DNA from: a bacterium
GTDB lineage: Bacteria; Cyanobacteriota; Vampirovibrionia; Gastranaerophilales; JBAXKC01
Direction of reading: 5' to 3'
Length of the DNA: 18,290 nt
Assembly (NCBI GenBank): GCA_037137535.1
Contig: JBAXKC010000045.1
Span: 1-18,290 of the forward strand
Numbering within the stretch: position 1 is the stretch's first letter; each line of letters begins with the position of its first letter. The notes under the pieces are model-generated. The model was not told the origin of the DNA. It made no database searches and saw nothing but the letters and a program-made list of their open reading frames with translations. The position numbers and the translations under genes are program-made. Below are positions 1 to 18,290 of this stretch, one piece after another.

Positions 1-78
1 GCGGTGATTGGTCTTTTTCACTAGTTTTACTTTTGTTAGCAAACAATCTTTTTCCGCTATTCATTACGTCTATTTATA
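1..78 (-). ncRNA. Putative bridge RNA, 5' part with target-binding loop
   Basis: Nested stems GCGG/CCGC (57-54 with 4-1) and GATTG/CAATC (48-44 with 10-6) enclose an internal loop. The loop holds TTTGCTAAC (43-35, identical to the left target flank 102-94) and AAAAAG (18-13, complement of the right flank CTTTTT). Confidence 0.7.
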
Positions 79-94
79 TATTTTATTGTACGAG
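1..94 (-). mobile_element. IS110-family left end (non-coding, bridge-RNA-bearing), truncated by the window edge
   Basis: Minus strand reads ...TTTGCTAA-CT-cg-TACAAT, with a CT core at 94-93 and a -10 hexamer at 90-85. The flanking repeat copy stops exactly at this core. It pairs logically with the right end at 18104-18124. Confidence 0.75.
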
Positions 95-236
95 TTAGCA
101 AAAACAACAACATAGCAGCTCTTAACCGCTACTGGCTTCTTTTCATACTCTTTGAGCGGTTTTGCACAAAATAATTTTTGAGAAAAGAAGCAAACCGCTT
201 ATGGGCAGTGGGCTTAGTTGAAGCTTTTGCCAAAAG
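93..236 (+). repeat. Dispersed multi-hairpin repeat, segment 1 (3' half only)
   Basis: Contains AAAAACAAC...CTTAACCGCTACTGGCTTCTTTTC...GAGAAAAGAAGCAAACCGCT, shared with the other copies. The 5' half is replaced by the IS110 end. Confidence 0.9.
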
Positions 237-253
237 AATTCATATGATTTAAG

Positions 254-1465
254 CTAAACCTTATAAATAACATTACCATCCTGATTGTATAAATTATTAA
301 TACTATCTTTCATTTTTTGGTCTGGAAAATTCTTGTATTCCTCTTTATACATATTGAAATAAAGCCCTTTTTTATCGGCAAGGTCAAAGATATACTTGTT
401 TCTTACGTCAATTATAAACTTTTTGCCGTCCTCAGCATTGTATTCCAGCCATGAATGATCTTTATTTATCATTAAAGTAGTATTTATACCGCTTAATTGT
501 GCCGTTGCCTTTAAAAACATTGACTGCACCAGACAAGTAGCGACCGAAGCAGGTAAACCCATACTACCTGTTGAAAATTCACCTATATCAACAATACGGC
601 ACGGATATTTTTTTTGCTTGTAGTCTGAATAATATATAAATTTGCCATTCATAATCAAGCCGTTTTCATTGTGTTTTGAGGTATGAATAATCCCGTTTTT
701 CTCATATTCATTAGTAATAAGTTTTGGCTTAAAAAAGTCTGTTTCTGTTTCAAGCAAAGCCTTTGCAATGTTTATTGAAGCTGATTTATCTGTATTTTTT
801 AAGTTTTTGTTTAACTTTTTTGACGCTTCAACCAAAACCTTATCATCTTCAAGATTTATTCTTACTTTGGAGAGAAATTCCTTCCCTATATCATCGTTTT
901 CGGTTAATTTCATCACCCCGCTTGGATAAAACGGCTTGTAGGTAAAAACAAACCCCTTCTCAAAGTCGTCAGACAGCTTAGCAACAGCTTTCCTTCCATC
1001 AAGAACGGCGAGCCTGTTATAATACAGATCGGACATCTGTTTAATCGGTGCATCGGCATTGATGGCATTTGCCTGCTGTAATAACTGCAAACGGATTGAA
1101 GTTATTCTTGCTTTGTTTGAATTATGAATCTGCACCTTCTTCGCTCTGTCTTCACCAGTTGTATTATCTTTTGCTATGTATTTATAGCGTTTATTGTTCA
1201 TTTCCGCCTTATCAACATAACTCAAACCCTTATTTGCAAGCCTATTTTTGGTTTTATAGTCAGTTTTTTCTTGTGAGGCTTTATTTAGATAAGTTTCAGC
1301 CTTATCCAAAGCTTGACCAACTTCCTTTTCTATAATATTTAACTTTGTCTCAACCGTTACATCTTTATCTTCAAGTATATTTAAAGTTTCTCTGTTTTTC
1401 TCGATAATTGCCTTTGAAGAAGCAGACTGCTTAAATGAAATATAAGGATTAGTTAATAAATTCAT
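254..1465 (-). CDS. Hypothetical protein with helical N-terminus and C-terminal transglutaminase-like (Cys-His-Asp) domain
   Basis: 403 aa ORF. The motif ATCLVQSMFLK...GI...DHSWLEY...FIIDV has the spacing of a transglutaminase-like triad. Confidence 0.6.
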   Translation of the reverse strand: MNLLTNPYISFKQSASSKAIIEKNRETLNILEDKDVTVETKLNIIEKEVGQALDKAETYLNKASQEKTDYKTKNRLANKGLSYVDKAEMNNKRYKYIAKDNTTGEDRAKKVQIHNSNKARITSIRLQLLQQANAINADAPIKQMSDLYYNRLAVLDGRKAVAKLSDDFEKGFVFTYKPFYPSGVMKLTENDDIGKEFLSKVRINLEDDKVLVEASKKLNKNLKNTDKSASINIAKALLETETDFFKPKLITNEYEKNGIIHTSKHNENGLIMNGKFIYYSDYKQKKYPCRIVDIGEFSTGSMGLPASVATCLVQSMFLKATAQLSGINTTLMINKDHSWLEYNAEDGKKFIIDVRNKYIFDLADKKGLYFNMYKEEYKNFPDQKMKDSINNLYNQDGNVIYKV

Positions 1466-2718: not shown

Positions 2719-2781
2719 TCAACCATTGTTAAAAAATACACAAAGATAAAAGTTAAAATAATTCATTAATTATTTGTTTTA

Positions 2782-3008
2782 ACAAGTAAATTATCTTCGT
2801 TGCTTTACGGTTTCGATGTCTGAAACCATCGACTAACTTTTTATTTTTTGAAAAATAAAAAGAGCCAGCAAAAACAAAAATATTGTTGGTTCTTTACCGC
2901 TACTGGCTTCTTTTTTTACTCTTTGAGCTTTTTTGCACAAAATAATTCTTGAGAAAAGAAGCAAACAGCTTGTGGATGGTGGAACCTTGGTTAAAGCCTT
3001 TGCGAAAA
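2782..3008 (+). repeat. Dispersed multi-hairpin repeat, copy 2
   Basis: GTAAATTATCTTCGTTGCT...CCATCGACTAACTTTTTATTTTTTGAAAAATAAAAAG...ACCGCTACTGGCTTC...GAGAAAAGAAGCAAAC. Confidence 0.92.
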
Positions 3009-3716: not shown

Positions 3717-4781
3717 TTAGGCCGCCAAATTAGCGTCAATAATATCGAGAGCCGATGAGATTCCCAGAGCCTCATCGGCTAATTTAAACTTTACGTCCCC
3801 CACAGAGCCGCCTGACAATTGCCCAAGTACAGTCATAAGTGAGTAAGCAAGGCATACTAAACCAACATGGTTCGTTAATTTATTCCAGCTTTGCATCATC
3901 AAATAATCCAGTCCCAGCTTTTGTTTAGCCTCTCGGTGAAATACCTCAACTTGCCATCTCTTTAAATATCCGACTTTCAATTCCTCGCTTGTAAGATTAA
4001 TATTGTTTGAGCCGATAAAATATTCCTCGTCTTGGTGGCAAAATCGAAGTATTTTAACCTCTCCTTTTATGTCATTAAGCTTACAAATTACACTTTCGTC
4101 ATAATTTAATCCTAATTTCTGCAATTGAGCATTATTTTTAGCAATTTGAACCTTTCTATTCCTTTTCAATCTTGTAAACCAAGTAAATCCTTTCCTATTT
4201 AGCCACTTTATGATTTTCTTTGAGGCAAAAAAACTATCGAACATTATTGTCTTTACAGGGATTTACATCAACAAAGACTTTTTAAGTAAATTTAAAAATA
4301 TATCAGTTTTTGTCTTGTATTCACGCTTGTTTACCAGTTTTGAGCTAACCCAAATGCTGAAATCAAGAGGAATATATATTTTCCCATTTGTCAGTCCTAA
4401 GCTAATAAGTTCATTTTGAGGCATGTTTTTCATCCCTCTTATGCTTTTCAATCCTTTTTTTGTTATTCTATTTTTCGCATATTGCTGCCTCAAAGGCGTT
4501 CCATCCACAACAAGATAGAAATTTAAGGCTGTAAAGATTGGCAATATTAGTTTTGCCAATTGATAGAACAGGTTTTTCCAGTTTATCTTTGATTCTAAGA
4601 AATCATAAAGCGGCCATTTGCTTCTTACTTTAGTATTTTTAGATATTCTATTCGTGCTAAAGCTTCTCTCTTGATAAATTAATCCTATTAAATATTTTCG
4701 GAATGAAATTTTATCGATATCATTTAAAACAAATGATAGAATGTAATTGAGAAATATATTTAGCCAAAATGATTGGCTCAT
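3717..4781 (-). pseudogene. DDE transposase (IS701-like) interrupted by one in-frame TAA at 4265-4263
   Basis: The two ORFs are in the same frame (...LM*IPVKTIMFDSFF...). Catalytic motifs VVDGT, MFDSFF and RWQVEVFHREAKQKLGL are present. Confidence 0.85.
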
Positions 4782-4787
4782 AATTAA

Positions 4788-4823
4788 AGCCTCCTGTTTA
4801 ACTATATTGTGATTCAGGAGGCT
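4788..4823 (-). promoter_or_regulatory. Hairpin sequestering the transposase Shine-Dalgarno (AGGAGG)
   Basis: AGCCTCCTG-N18-CAGGAGGCT, whose 3' arm on the minus strand is the SD just upstream of the ATG at 4781. Confidence 0.65.
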
Positions 4824-4900
4824 ACTTTATTTCAACTCGTTTTTGATTATCCTAATCTTCTGATAAAAATATTAACATAAGTTCAGCATAACGTTTTTAG

Positions 4901-5122
4901 TAAGAACCCTCCATCAACCCCCAACACTAACGAGCGGCTGGCTTCTTTTCTTACTTTTTGAGTTGTTTTACATAAAATAATTTTTGAGAAAAGAAGCCAG
5001 TAGCGGTCAAAAACTGCCATGTTTTTGTTTTTACTCCCTTTTTATTTTTCAAAAAATAAAAAGGGAGTTGATGGATTTATACATCGAAACCGTAAAGCAA
5101 CGAAGATTATTTACAGTTAAAA
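4901..5122 (-). repeat. Dispersed multi-hairpin repeat, copy 3 (loop of last hairpin inverted)
   Basis: Reverse complement of copies 2 and 4, except 4952-4986, which is in plus orientation. Confidence 0.92.
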
Positions 5123-5147
5123 GAAAAAAATTTATGATTAAAACCCC

Positions 5148-6847: not shown

Positions 6848-7078
6848 GTCATGCTTAAATTGTTTCAGCATCACCTTAAATTATTGGATTTTTACCTCTG
6901 AAATTTGTTCGTTGCTATACGGTTTAAATATCTAAAGCCATCGACTCCCTTTTTATTTTTGAAAAATAAAAAGGGAGTAAAAACAAAAACATGGCAGTTC
7001 TTGACCGCTACTGGTTTCTTTTCTGACTCTTCGAGTTGTTTTACACATAATAATTTTCGAGAAAAGAAGCAAATCGCC
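6848..7078 (+). repeat. Dispersed multi-hairpin repeat, copy 4, preceded by a GTCATGCT..TTCAGCATC REP-like palindrome
   Basis: REP-like unit at 6848-6872 and core from ~6891, including hairpin ACTCCCTTTTTATTTT/AAAATAAAAAGGGAGT. Confidence 0.92.
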
Positions 7079-7283
7079 TTATTTGAATTTACATTTATTA
7101 ACATAAACACAATAAACAAGTAATTAAACACCCATTAACTTCTTTGATAAGAATAAGTCTTAATTTGAATAATAAACAAAAGGAGAATTTATTTAAAAAC
7201 AAGCGGCAAAAGAGATCAAACATATCGTAACAGACTAAAGGATTTCAGGGAACATACAAATTATGTTTCCTTTCGCTGTTAAT

Positions 7284-7655
7284 TTATCTGGCTTTATAGT
7301 TTTTTGCCTTTTCGTATGCTTGTTGAACCGTCGTCTGACAAGTTTTAACTTCATTCAAAAGCAACATATCATGTGCTGTTTTCCTACTGTGAACAGCCTT
7401 AGTTAAAGCCTGCAAGTTATCAACGTTGTTTGAACCGCCAAGACACAAAGGGATCTTATGATCAACCTCAATCCATTTTTGTCCTGCATAGCCGTCTCGC
7501 TTTTTAACAAAATATTTAGTCGTTTGCGATATATCCCGCTCATCTAGGGAGATACAACTTCCAAAACAATCGAAAAGAACTCTGGCATCAACTTTTAACG
7601 CAAACAGAGAGATTAAAAAAATGACAAAAACAACAAATTTAAAACTGAATTTCAT
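7284..7655 (-). CDS. HNH endonuclease with N-terminal signal peptide
   Basis: HNH motif EVDHKIPLCLGGSNNVDNLQALTKAVHSRKT and leader MKFSFKFVVFVIFLISLFALKVDA. The ATG abuts the upstream stop (TAAATG). Confidence 0.85.
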   Translation of the reverse strand: MKFSFKFVVFVIFLISLFALKVDARVLFDCFGSCISLDERDISQTTKYFVKKRDGYAGQKWIEVDHKIPLCLGGSNNVDNLQALTKAVHSRKTAHDMLLLNEVKTCQTTVQQAYEKAKNYKAR

Positions 7656-8333
7656 TTATAAATTCCATTTCTCTTTTAATTTTTTCGCAAAATAACTACT
7701 CTGTGCAAAAGTTCCAAGATTTTCAATATAGTCGATTGCCTGTTGTTTGTCAAAATCTAAAGGCGATCCTATTTCCACCTTTTTCTGTTGTTCGATATAA
7801 GTTTTTGTCTGTGCTATACGTGTTTTTTGTTCAAAAGCTCCTTTTCGTTTTATATGCTCCTCAATATTTGAAATAGTACTCTCCTTTTCGGCCTTTTTAT
7901 TTTTTCTAAAATCGGAAGAGTTATTTTTATAGTTACTATTATATTGTTTGTCTGACATTTTGACACCAAGTAGTGTGTCAGATTGACAGCTTTCAGGTGC
8001 CATATCGACAGCGCCAAAAAAAATAGCGGTAAAAGCATATAAGTTATTATTTCCGTTTTTTGACTTTACGATAAGACGTTTTTTAATCAGCTCATTTATT
8101 GCTCTGACTACTGATCGCTCACTTATATTTAAATTCTTTGCCAGATACTCCTGAGAAGGGAATACAACAGATTTCTCGGGATTATAATGAGAAGCTAGAC
8201 CTATTAATACAAGCATTTGAGTAGGATTTAATTCAAACTGTTTAGCTGCGCCTGAAATATAAAGACGTTGCGCAAGGTTAAATCCGTTGATTTTAACCTT
8301 TTTCGGTGATGGTTTATAGTTTTGTGAATACAT
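7656..8333 (-). CDS. Winged-HTH replication initiator-like protein (HTH_36-like N-terminus)
   Basis: LNPTQMLVLIGLASH...VFPSQEYLAKNLNISERSVVRAINELIKKRLI...NNNLY, with an AGAGGAG SD and an iteron-like tract just after the HTH. Confidence 0.75.
   Translation of the reverse strand: MYSQNYKPSPKKVKINGFNLAQRLYISGAAKQFELNPTQMLVLIGLASHYNPEKSVVFPSQEYLAKNLNISERSVVRAINELIKKRLIVKSKNGNNNLYAFTAIFFGAVDMAPESCQSDTLLGVKMSDKQYNSNYKNNSSDFRKNKKAEKESTISNIEEHIKRKGAFEQKTRIAQTKTYIEQQKKVEIGSPLDFDKQQAIDYIENLGTFAQSSYFAKKLKEKWNL
7953..8011. repeat. Three iteron-like repeats inside the rep-like gene (candidate origin)
   Basis: TGACATTTTGACAC (7953), TGTCAGATTGACAG (7976) and TGCCATATCGACAG (7998), spaced 23 and 22 bp, next to an AT-rich tract at ~7894-7949. 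Confidence 0.6.
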
Positions 8334-8485
8334 TAAAATAACACTCCTCTTTGGTGCTGAAAGTCCGTAAACATAACAGCCGCACTTTGTTTGAGCGTTG
8401 CAACATGCTGTAAGCCATGCTGATCATGGCTTTTGCCGATAGTTTAAAATCCTGTAACATTAAGGCTTTCAAGGCACGACAAAGG

Positions 8486-8514
8486 TTGCAATTTAATGCG
8501 CCTTCGGTTAGAAT
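8486..8514 (+). promoter_or_regulatory. Sigma70-type promoter for an antisense RNA
   Basis: TTGCAA (8486-8491)-17 bp-TAGAAT (8509-8514). Confidence 0.65.
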
Positions 8515-8519
8515 AAGGT

Positions 8520-8570
8520 AGATGGTTTTAAAAGTTTTGTGAAGGTCGCATTATATGCGGCTTTTTTTTT
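8520..8570 (+). ncRNA. Putative ~50-nt counter-transcribed RNA opposite the rep leader
   Basis: Lies between the promoter above and a terminator AGGTCGCAT-tat-ATGCGGCTTTTTTTTT (8543-8570), with no ORF. Confidence 0.55.
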
Positions 8571-8927
8571 GTGATGATTCATATTCAATTTTTTAGGGTT
8601 TGTGTCTGTTTATGACAAATTCGGGCAGTAACTGCCTCGTATGGAATCGTTATTTTACAGGACCTTTGCTGAAATTTTCAATTGGTATCGTGAAATATGG
8701 TATATGTTCAAAAAATAAAGACATTGTTATTTATTATGCTTATTTCAGCACTTACGGTCTTTTTATCACTCCTCTCCAAGTGTGAATCATATTAAGTAAG
8801 GGATTTTGATCATGATTATAACCAACATTCATAACCCCTTGTTAATTAGTTTAGCCATGCATTATAATAATGTCAACAACTATCATGTGTAATATAGATT
8901 AGGTTATAATGGGATTATAAACAGGTT

Positions 8928-9488
8928 ATGAGTACATCGAGAAAACTGACTGTATCCGAGTTAAGTCAAGCATTAGGGGTAAGTGTAAACACCACATGGA
9001 AGAAAATTAAGAAAAAGGGGTTAACAACAGTTAAAGACACTGTTAATAACAGGGAAATTACTTTCATAGAGCTAACCGAGCACGAATATGATGATTTAAT
9101 GTCTGAATCATCCGTTAATATCCCCATTAATAATGGGGGTTATGACTCCAATTATGAAGATTTTGAAACAATTCATGAAGGGGTTAAGGTTTCATCATCT
9201 CCTTATGAACCTCAGGTTGACGTAATATCAATCGTAGAAAGAGTTATGGACTATTCAAAAGAAATGAATAATCAGGTTAAAGAATATATTAACCGGGTTA
9301 TTGATGCTGAAAAACAGGTTAAACTCCTTGAAGACTCCGAAAATAGAAAAAATGATGAGTACCATCGGCTCATTGCTGAAAATAAAGAACTAATTTCTAA
9401 AGTTGCACTCCTCGAAAAAGAAAATGCTGAATTTAAAGAAAAATTAGAAAAATATGAAGCCAAATGGTGGAATAAAGTTATAAAATAA
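8928..9488 (+). CDS. HTH + coiled-coil DNA-binding protein (pSK1 Par/RacA-like architecture)
   Basis: LTVSELSQALGVSVNTTWKKIKK HTH, a C-terminal coiled coil and the terminal motif KWWNKVIK. Divergent from the rep-like gene. Confidence 0.7.
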   Translation: MSTSRKLTVSELSQALGVSVNTTWKKIKKKGLTTVKDTVNNREITFIELTEHEYDDLMSESSVNIPINNGGYDSNYEDFETIHEGVKVSSSPYEPQVDVISIVERVMDYSKEMNNQVKEYINRVIDAEKQVKLLEDSENRKNDEYHRLIAENKELISKVALLEKENAEFKEKLEKYEAKWWNKVIK

Positions 9489-9550: not shown

Positions 9551-9810
9551 ATCATTGTGAGCGTAATGAACAATCGCCTATATTATTTGGCTTCACAAGT
9601 AAATTATCTTTATTGCTCAATGTTTTCGATATCTAAAGCCATCGCCTTCCTTTTTATTTTTGAAAAATAAAAAGGAATCAAAAACAAAAATATTGAAGTT
9701 CTTAACCGCTGTTTGCTTCTTTTCTTGCCCTTTAAGTTCTTCTTCACAAAATAATTTTAGAGAAAAGAAGCAAACAGCTTGTGTGTCGTGTGTCTTGGTT
9801 AAAGTTTCAC
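9551..9810 (+). repeat. Dispersed multi-hairpin repeat, copy 5 (full length with (G/A)TCATTG REP-like head)
   Basis: ATCATTGTGAGCGTAATGAACAATCGCC...TTCCTTTTTATTTTTGAAAAATAAAAAGGAA...GCTGTTTGCTTCTTTTCT...AGAAAAGAAGCAAACAGC. Confidence 0.92.
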
Positions 9811-9863
9811 AAGTAAATTTTTATCTAAACGTAAAAAATATAATTTGATAAGTGAGCTTGTTA

Positions 9864-12324: not shown

Positions 12325-12550
12325 GAGATTCTCAATCAATTTCAGCATGACGATTTTCGTAAAAGAAAAAACGAAAGAACCACCACTAACGAGCGGTTTG
12401 CTTCTTTTCTCGAAAATGCTATTGTGCGAAGCCACTCAAAGAGTAAGAAAAGAAGCCGATGGCTTTAGGCCTCGAAATCATTGAGCAATGAATATAATTC
12501 ACTTGTGAAGCCTCATAATATAGGCGAAGGTTCGCTACGCTTGCAATGAC
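12325..12550 (-). repeat. Dispersed multi-hairpin repeat, copy 6 (middle hairpin deleted) plus a GTCATGCTGAA REP-like unit
   Basis: On plus, AGAAAAGAAGCC joins directly to GATGGCTTTAG. Head GTCATTGCAAGCGTAGCGAA on minus from 12550, REP-like unit at 12325-12351. Confidence 0.88.
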
Positions 12551-14799: not shown

Positions 14800-14834
14800 T
14801 TATTCTAAATCAAGTTTAGACTGATATTTTATGA

Positions 14835-15086
14835 GAATTCAACTAAGAACCGCTCCAAATGAGCGGTTTGCTTCTTTTCTCAAAAATGCTTTTGTGCAAA
14901 ACGCCTCAACGAGTAAGAAAAGAATCAAGTGGCTGTTAAGAACTTCAATGTTTTGTTTTTGCTTATTTTTTATTTTTCGAAAAATAAAAAGTAAGTCGAT
15001 GGCTTCAAACATTGAAATCATTAAGCAACGAAGAAAATTTACAGGTAAAAACTCATAATCAAGGCGATTGCTACACTCGCAAAGAC
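14835..15086 (-). repeat. Dispersed multi-hairpin repeat, copy 7 (full length)
   Basis: Reverse complement of the consensus, with head GTCTTTGCGAGTGTAGCAATCGCC. Confidence 0.92.
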
Positions 15087-17942: not shown

Positions 17943-18105
17943 GTCATGCTGAAATTGTTTAAGCATCTCATAAAAACTATCATTGCGAGCATAGCGAAAC
18001 AATCCAAAGCATTTTTAGGTTTTTACATTTAGATTATCTTTGTTGCCGTATGATTTCGATGTCTAAAGTCATCGACTAACTTTTTATTTTTCGAAAAATA
18101 AAAAG
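17943..18105 (+). repeat. REP-like unit plus dispersed repeat segment 8 (5' half only)
   Basis: GTCATGCTGAAATTGTTTAAGCATC, then ATCATTGCGAGCATAGCGAAACAATC...CATCGACTAACTTTTTATTTTTCGAAAAATAAAAAG, cut at the AG core. Confidence 0.9.
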
Positions 18106-18290
18106 ATTATGTTATGGAAGTCAAATACTTTTTAGAATAATTGGAATCAAAAGGTGTTCTGTTTCTTAAAATAGCAGCGGCAGTTGCAAGCATTTTTCTC
18201 ATAACAGCGATAAGTGCTACTTTTTTAGCTTTACCTGATTCCGTAACAACTTTTGTGTAAACCTTAATTTTGAGAGATTAGAGAAATTTT
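18104..18290 (-). mobile_element. IS110-family right end, truncated by the window edge
   Basis: Minus strand ends TTGACTTCCATAACATAATCT, an outward -35 followed by a CT core, overlapping the transposase 3' end. Confidence 0.85.
18107..18277 (-). pseudogene. IS110-family transposase C-terminal fragment (not in the ORF track)
   Basis: Manual translation SLKIKVYTKVVTESGKAKKVALIAVMRKMLATAAAILRNRTPFDSNYSKKYLTSIT* matches the IS110 C-terminal GK.KKVAL.A.MRK motif. An in-frame TAA lies at 18280-18278. Confidence 0.8.

Follow-up and report, generated by a model that had tools for sequence, protein, structure and literature searches.

Sequence features of the locus

The window, by which we mean the whole stretch of 18,290 nucleotides analysed here, is the complete contig C45 of an 81-contig, 2.95-Mb assembly. 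Its first 92 nucleotides (1..92, minus strand), which run into the contig start, are annotated as the assembled part of the left end of an IS110 element; a 54-nt stub of the same end is found at the start of contig C40 and at the end of C80, 53/54 nt being identical to the window. The left junction is marked by a CT core (93..94, minus strand) that C40 and C80 share. At the opposite side of the window the right end of an IS110 element (18106..18236, minus strand) carries the last codons of a transposase, and 53 nt of it recur as a second copy at the end of C47. The transposase stop (18109-18107, minus strand) and the left donor ACATAAT (18112-18106, minus strand) lie within this right end, which has no long inverted repeat in common with the left end. 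The left end cuts a copy of a host repeat at its middle hairpin, leaving a half repeat at 93..231 (plus strand, nhmmer model positions 111-246), and the right end cuts the complementary half at 18011..18105 (plus strand, model positions 20-114), in which the core (18105-18104) and the right target (18103-18099) are located.

A CT core was present at 3/3 left and 2/2 right ends in the assembly, two of these ends having an extra CT. The left junction on C80 (L228) and the right junction on C47 (L229) read CTCT in place of CT. Should both junctions belong to one and the same copy, a CTCT target was duplicated as 4 bp. The CTCT may represent a 4-bp core duplication in which the guides registered on two adjacent CTs.

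The assembled transposase tail of 42 codons matched positions 316-343 of the 343 positions of profile NF033542 with E = 0.0012, a tail match that is under the cut-off for a whole protein. Profile searches for PF01548 and PF02371 gave no match anywhere in the assembly, whose repeated IS110 interior must therefore have collapsed; full-length relatives carry both domains. Run X1 contains a 1,067-nt contig (depth 76.7) that ends on window 1-94 and extends 973 nt beyond position 1, as well as a 155-nt contig (depth 94.4) that spans 18104-18236 and extends the frame by 22 nt past 18236. The unique window contigs in the same run have a depth of 29-42, the depth varying along C45 itself (29 vs 42), and a C45 circle closed by one IS copy is at most a possibility. 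If the two contigs adjoin, they would sum to an element of about 1.19 kb, which could accommodate one target loop, one donor loop and some 330 codons. Jointly with the assignment of the left end discussed below, we consider it highly probable that about three IS110 copies exist and are collapsed in the assembly.

Joined ends and homologous elements

The right end contains the box TTGACT (18124-18119, minus strand) inside the last transposase codons and the left end contains TACAAT (85..90, minus strand). In computationally joined ends these are separated by 17 nt and would form a sigma-70 type junction promoter, whereas no promoter was found in the integrated left end (window 1-300). For IS621, the available text of PMC11208158 describes a junction promoter of which the -35 box is likewise located in the right end and the -10 box in the left end. 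Neither a circle junction nor an empty-site joint was among those listed for the contigs of 4 runs, a form of data from which rare forms are dropped.

Related loci were retrieved by alignment seeded with the right-end peptide. The closest homologues were found in Gastranaerophilales genomes and records and in metagenome contigs, with 44-67% identity in the C-terminal peptide; they start with CT-CGTAC as in the window and end with TTGACT, 13 nt and CT. Judged by these homologues, the host probably belongs to the order Gastranaerophilales. The C-terminal peptide of the window is present in none of the retrieved proteins (best match 22/30 residues), and no protein matched the 42-aa tail at E <= 0.01 among 25 longer candidates, which is weak evidence. 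Exact left-end patterns aimed at the element interior were unmatched in metagenome contig and viral contig collections. Comparison of the 93-nt left end with 400 genomes of the order gave short matches at chance level only, and none of the best 6 loci, which were inspected, is an IS end.

In principle, two different elements could have contributed the left end (position 1) and the right end (18106), or the left end could be a non-autonomous remnant without a transposase. The ends are not linked by assembled interior sequence, nor was any single record seen to contain both; moreover, the right-end copy in the window is interrupted by another IS, and the left end carries a private base at position 56, the outer-stem pair being C-G here but U-G in C40, C80 and the X1 contig. 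Against this, homologues found by the peptide share the window's arrangement at both of their extremities, the joined ends give the exact promoter spacing, and the two X1 contigs, if adjoining, add up to the element length given above. A separate origin of the ends, or a left end that is only a remnant, is thus very unlikely.

The target-binding loop and its guides

A first-pass annotation, made from the sequence alone, had proposed that the left end encodes a bridge-RNA-like target-binding loop programmed against the local repeat. The motifs on which this proposal was built are all found on the minus strand at the positions it gave: the core CT at 94-93, TACAAT at 90-85, the stem GCGG (57-54)/CCGC (4-1), the stretch TTTGCTAAC at 43-35 and again in the flank at 102-94, and AAAAAG at 18-13 with its complement CTTTTT at 18105-18100. 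The letters of a second stem, GATTG (48-44)/CAATC (10-6), are present too, but its G44-C10 pair probably does not form. The register of the loop, which occupies 1..57 (minus strand) according to covariance model R1 and stem covariation (see below), was mapped onto the IS621 bridge RNA with the positions given in the available text of PMC11208158: window A49 and G44 are the counterparts of A43 and G48, and A26, G21 and T20 those of A67, G72 and U73. In this register T43 is probably a linker and G44 the conserved unpaired G, which would leave G44-C10 unpaired.

The register also changes the left guide. Its identity to the flank stands, but its length is 8 nt (42-35) and not 9. The left target guide TTGCTAAC (35..42, minus strand) reads target positions 1-8 and is followed by A, not T, at position 9. 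The 9-nt version was rejected, as C80 has a C at the additional position and the IS621 register makes that position a linker; with this register the C80 flank fits the left guide perfectly, despite the mismatch at the ninth base of the earlier version. The right target guide AAAAAG (13..18, minus strand) reads target positions 13-8 and is complementary to 18105-18100, while the left target TTGCTAA (95..101, minus strand) belongs to the first arm of the middle hairpin of the repeat. The putative handshake positions AC (11..12, minus strand) were assigned from the IS621 rule and the junction sequences. The handshake A would pair with donor T7 and not with target A7; pairing with the donor but not the target at position 7 favours strand exchange in IS621 (PMC11208158). 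The missing match between the left guide and the core T, which had been put forward as a caveat, is real and is ordinary in this clade: in 6/14 homologues, too, the best-fitting loop has a base other than T at guide position 9. The length of the element suggests that it probably has a single target loop.

Folding of nucleotides 1-70 alone gave a structure that is no stabler than those of shuffled sequences (-8.0 kcal/mol, z = -0.75, 40/200 shuffles equally good). The minimum-energy fold shuts part of the loop; the centroid corresponds to the open loop that had been described. No Rfam family was found in the window.

The resemblance of the loop to the flanking DNA could also be due to AT-richness or to capture of a piece of the repeat, with the insertion site being chosen by protein or DNA structure and without any RNA guide. 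The guides are indeed short and AT-rich, and the target is palindromic, so that both guides also occur in the hairpin arms. The complete layout is nevertheless rare by chance. The 92-nt left end was shuffled by mononucleotide and resampled under a first-order Markov model, 200,000 times each. The 8-mer TTGCTAAC alone arose 124 and 157 times, respectively, but exact TTGCTAAC with AAAAAG 12-22 nt further on arose only 9 and 6 times, i.e. in 3-5 per 100,000 trials. The conserved A...G motifs at the IS621 positions also argue against a loop without guide function, as do the homologues, in which loop positions vary with unrelated targets while the stems still pair.

Guide-target covariation among homologues

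Covariation of guides with targets was examined by permutation over 15 elements, i.e. the window and 14 homologues with both junctions. The guide-target score was 123, compared with a permuted mean of 59.4 (sd 8.2), and none of 200,000 permutations reached it; with one element per lineage (10 elements) the score was 84 vs 37.4 (sd 7.1), again with 0/200,000. In these scores the loops were picked by conserved context with the targets in view, and the best loop was allowed in real and permuted pairs alike. For the window guide, the score is 9/9 with the site of the window element and never above 5 with the other 14 sites. The permutation set excluded L012, which has no left flank; L134, L145 and L148, which duplicate L033 or L032 in both element and site; L151, of which the left flank is common with L032 and the right flank misfits at position 10; L157, of which the loop was unparsed although its left end fits 8/8 and 7/7; and more distant, uncurated loci. 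This test largely refutes a choice of site without an RNA guide, which we regard as hardly tenable.

The stems are maintained as well. Since RNAalifold gave no structure on a MAFFT alignment of the 14 homologous loops, pairing was counted for a named structure, which was derived by the analyst from the same sequences and with 2/14 rows kept although misregistered at the 3' end: 92% of 137 cells are paired and 8/10 pairs have two-sided changes, whereas 0/500 shuffles paired as highly and slid controls reached 33-49%. A covariance model built from homologous left ends (R1, 13 loops of elements retrieved with the right-end peptide, window excluded) recognised window 1-57 with 28.9 bits and E = 0.00034, and in a search of the 2.95-Mb genome this segment was the sole hit (E = 0.05).

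The donor side could be followed in the relatives. In 13/14 homologues, which represent five donor types, the donor 8-mer is found again as a donor guide. The first-pass annotation had predicted a donor loop beyond position 1; such a loop is present in homologue L152, of which the donor is identical to that of the window, and consists of ACATAATC followed by a discontinuous guide ending in ACGAG, but the window's own copy would lie past the contig end.

The host repeat and the insertion sites

The repeat is about 230 nt long, forms multiple hairpins and covers < 0.4% of the genome. A search with its profile yielded 70 hits without overlap, 41 of them extending across the middle hairpin; the hits are dense on C45, C50, C60, C40, C47 and C57. 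All full-length copies with flanking genes on both sides (28/28) are intergenic. A search of 150 other genomes of the order revealed no copy, there is no Rfam match, and terminal inverted repeats are not evident on inspection. A Y1/RAYT-type transposase (PF01797) that might belong to the repeat was not detected in the assembly.

Comparison of the genomic IS copies and their flanks showed a single position in the middle hairpin for all 5 IS110 ends of the assembly. Only 3/103 ends of other multi-copy IS lie in the repeat, compared with 5/5 for IS110, a table of which the p value overstates the case because the five ends represent about three insertions. The sequence of the left guide followed by T, TTGCTAAC-T, is present at 3/3 left junctions and in 0/41 empty repeat copies (Fisher p = 7.6e-5). 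The 13-nt target is perfect in none of the 41 empty copies; 5 have one mismatch, 13 have two and 23 have three or more. Within the window, three mismatches to the guide occur in the target arm of the empty copies at 2763..3007 (plus strand), which also has an extra CT, and at 4904..5136 (minus strand), 6862..7104 (plus strand) and 9566..9813 (plus strand). The empty copy at 14828..15074 (minus strand) has 2 mismatches, and a copy without the middle hairpin, detected as two partial hits, lies at 12375..12533 (minus strand). The middle hairpin was thus correctly named as the site read by the guide, but what the guide specifies is one minority allele, not the repeat as a whole.

All perfect copies of this target allele in the assembly are occupied, and the empty copies have mismatches. 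The partner arm GTTAG pairs with the target allele. An intact target arm was found in 0/7 empty copies with a GTTAG partner arm (6 called by script and 1 by eye) vs 13/29 of those with other alleles (p = 0.034). This skew fits saturation of the perfect sites; escape from insertion and simple survival are not separated by these data.

Matches to the guides also occur outside the repeat. The minimal 11-nt target is matched by nine empty sites that are not in the repeat, including C13:29263, which matches all 13 target positions, and the intergenic site C2:121524 with a 12-nt match. The element and guide could therefore be as proposed here, with the hairpin as a second requirement beyond base pairing. 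Such a role for the hairpin is a possibility that we hold only tentatively, and it refines rather than replaces the explanation by guide pairing. It accords with the observation that all insertions are in the hairpin while these nine sites are empty, with the need for a target stem-loop reported for ISPpu10 in the available part of 10.64898/2026.03.19.712850, and with the folding of the reconstructed targets of L146, L153, L032, L033 and L171 at -4 to -9 kcal/mol, calculated without a shuffled control. On the other hand, 8/9 of these empty sites fall within long open frames, from which insertions would be lost by selection, and the element has only some 3 copies in all. The targets of L011, L152, L154 and L038 barely fold (0 to -1.7 kcal/mol, also without a shuffled control), and the geometry is unlike that of ISPpu10 in that the guide-read bases are in the hairpin stem here.

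One genome offers a natural specificity series: the perfect sites are occupied, five repeat copies with one mismatch are empty, and so are the nine matching sites that lie outside the hairpin. It is well suited to a direct test of mismatch tolerance and of any hairpin requirement.

One further locus (L226, G000:C37:5974-6009) is a shortened repeat copy with 33/36 nt of the target loop, directly followed by the partner arm; three differences are within or adjoining the left guide. Most simply, it is the scar of an older insertion that was cut down by two deletions. Alternatively, it is derived from a sibling element with a different guide. Of the relatives, L146 and L153 insert into a short REP-like palindrome. 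Similar palindromes adjoin some copies of the repeat (window 6848-6880 and 17943-17975), with the 11-mer TGCTGAACTTG occurring 10 times.

Relation to IS621 and other IS110-group systems

The features described above agree with those reported for IS621 in the available text of PMC11208160 and PMC11208158: a CT core at both ends, a -35 box in the right end, a -10 box in the left end and an RNA encoded in the left end. The order of stem, left guide, stem-loop, right guide and handshake is the same, the conserved A and G positions are shared, and both elements insert into an intergenic palindromic repeat. For IS621, 144/173 mapped sites are in REP elements, as given in the text of PMC11208160 that is available. 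Differences are found in the details. IS621 pairs all 9 left-guide positions, whereas the window guide covers 1-8 and has A at position 9. The spacing from core C to core G in the loop is 22 nt in the window vs 23 in IS621, and the natural match of the right guide is 6 nt vs 4. Furthermore, the -35 box of the window is inside the last codons of the transposase, and the AT-rich target allele belongs to a 230-nt repeat.

Similar to the window element, ISPpu10 from Pseudomonas putida is an IS110 element with a CT duplication and a repeated intergenic hairpin as target, as far as described in the available part of 10.64898/2026.03.19.712850. A 5' stem-loop in its target was shown to be necessary, whereas the partner arm of the window hairpin is located 3' of the core. 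The IS1111 group is characterised by a bridge RNA in a long right end and by sub-terminal inverted repeats of 7-17 bp, according to the accessible text of PMC11208160. Assignment to this group was rejected, since only 1 nt separates the transposase stop from the right core and it is the left end that carries the guide loop.

Taken from sequence comparison, window 92-1 very probably represents the left end of an IS621-type IS110-group element with a guide that reads a minority allele of the middle hairpin of the repeat. The proposal of an IS110 recombinase system in the first-pass annotation is supported by the transposase tail, the location of the ends in the repeat, the guide covariation and the donor loop of L152. 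The window element appears to work like IS621 and shows each of the membership features that can be examined on the assembled sequence. By analogy with the mechanism described for IS621 in the available text of PMC11208160, the element would form a circle, and the promoter created by its joined ends would drive transcription of the bridge RNA. The guides would pair with both target strands and the recombinase would insert the element at CT. Targeting by bridge RNA has been known since 2024; the window element adds a clean new case of such a system and not a system of another kind. With it, the bridge-RNA rules worked out for IS621 reach an uncultured freshwater lineage and a target that is very rich in AT.

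Tandem target loops in related elements

A clade of nine IS110 elements from Gastranaerophilales and metagenomes (L011, L032, L033, L038, L146, L149, L150, L152 and L153) shares the CT-CGTAC start, the right-end layout and a homologous target loop with the window element. Unlike the latter, which probably has one target loop, these 9 of the 14 homologues have 2-3 target-like loops in tandem ahead of the donor loop, each with different guides. Two loops were found in L011, L032, L033, L149 and L150, and three in L038, L146, L152 and L153; L012, which lacks a left flank, also has three. The best fit to the insertion site was obtained with the first loop in five of the nine and with the second loop in four. 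The tandem-loop elements are 1.42-1.52 kb long, compared with the approximately 1.19 kb inferred for the window element.

No description of multiple or tandem target loops was found in the literature searched, in which subscription papers were mostly absent. The available text of PMC11208160, 10.1101/2025.05.14.653916 and 10.64898/2026.10.21.760802 does not mention them, and figures or supplements of these papers may show them. The loops of the relatives are the larger lead, as bridge RNAs with 2-3 target loops would, if functional, be a natural multiplexed design.

It is conceivable, though we consider it rather less likely than the contrary, that elements of this clade use the target loop as a modular cassette. 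Different loops would then serve different insertions, and the window element would be a one-cassette member aimed at one allele, with perfect copies filled and the remaining copies persisting through changes at guide positions; the CTCT junctions may fit in as the 4-bp core duplication mentioned above. If true, natural multiplexed bridge RNAs exist and a chase between guide and repeat can be read from the sequences.

Other mobile elements and neighbouring genes

The transposase copy in the window is interrupted at 18237..18290 (plus strand) by the end of another multi-copy IS, which we take to be IS256-like. The same end occurs at 8 other places, all at or near contig ends. At least 6 other multi-copy IS families break the assembly, giving the 103 clustered ends used above, and the runs show one IS nested in another. 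Transposition in the host population looks recent.

A transposase of the IS701 family is encoded in two frames at window 3717-4862, and a fragment of this IS is present on G000:C77:1-209 (L230). Runs X1, X3 and X4 link the IS701 end at 4862 with 18085, and C77 links the IS701 fragment with the partner arm of the hairpin. These joints point to a third IS110 right end, located in a hairpin that also received an IS701 fragment. Additionally, window 7284-9488 encodes a small HNH protein, an HTH_36/RepC-like protein and a possible DNA-binding coiled-coil protein, which form a plasmid- or prophage-like group of genes in the middle of the contig.
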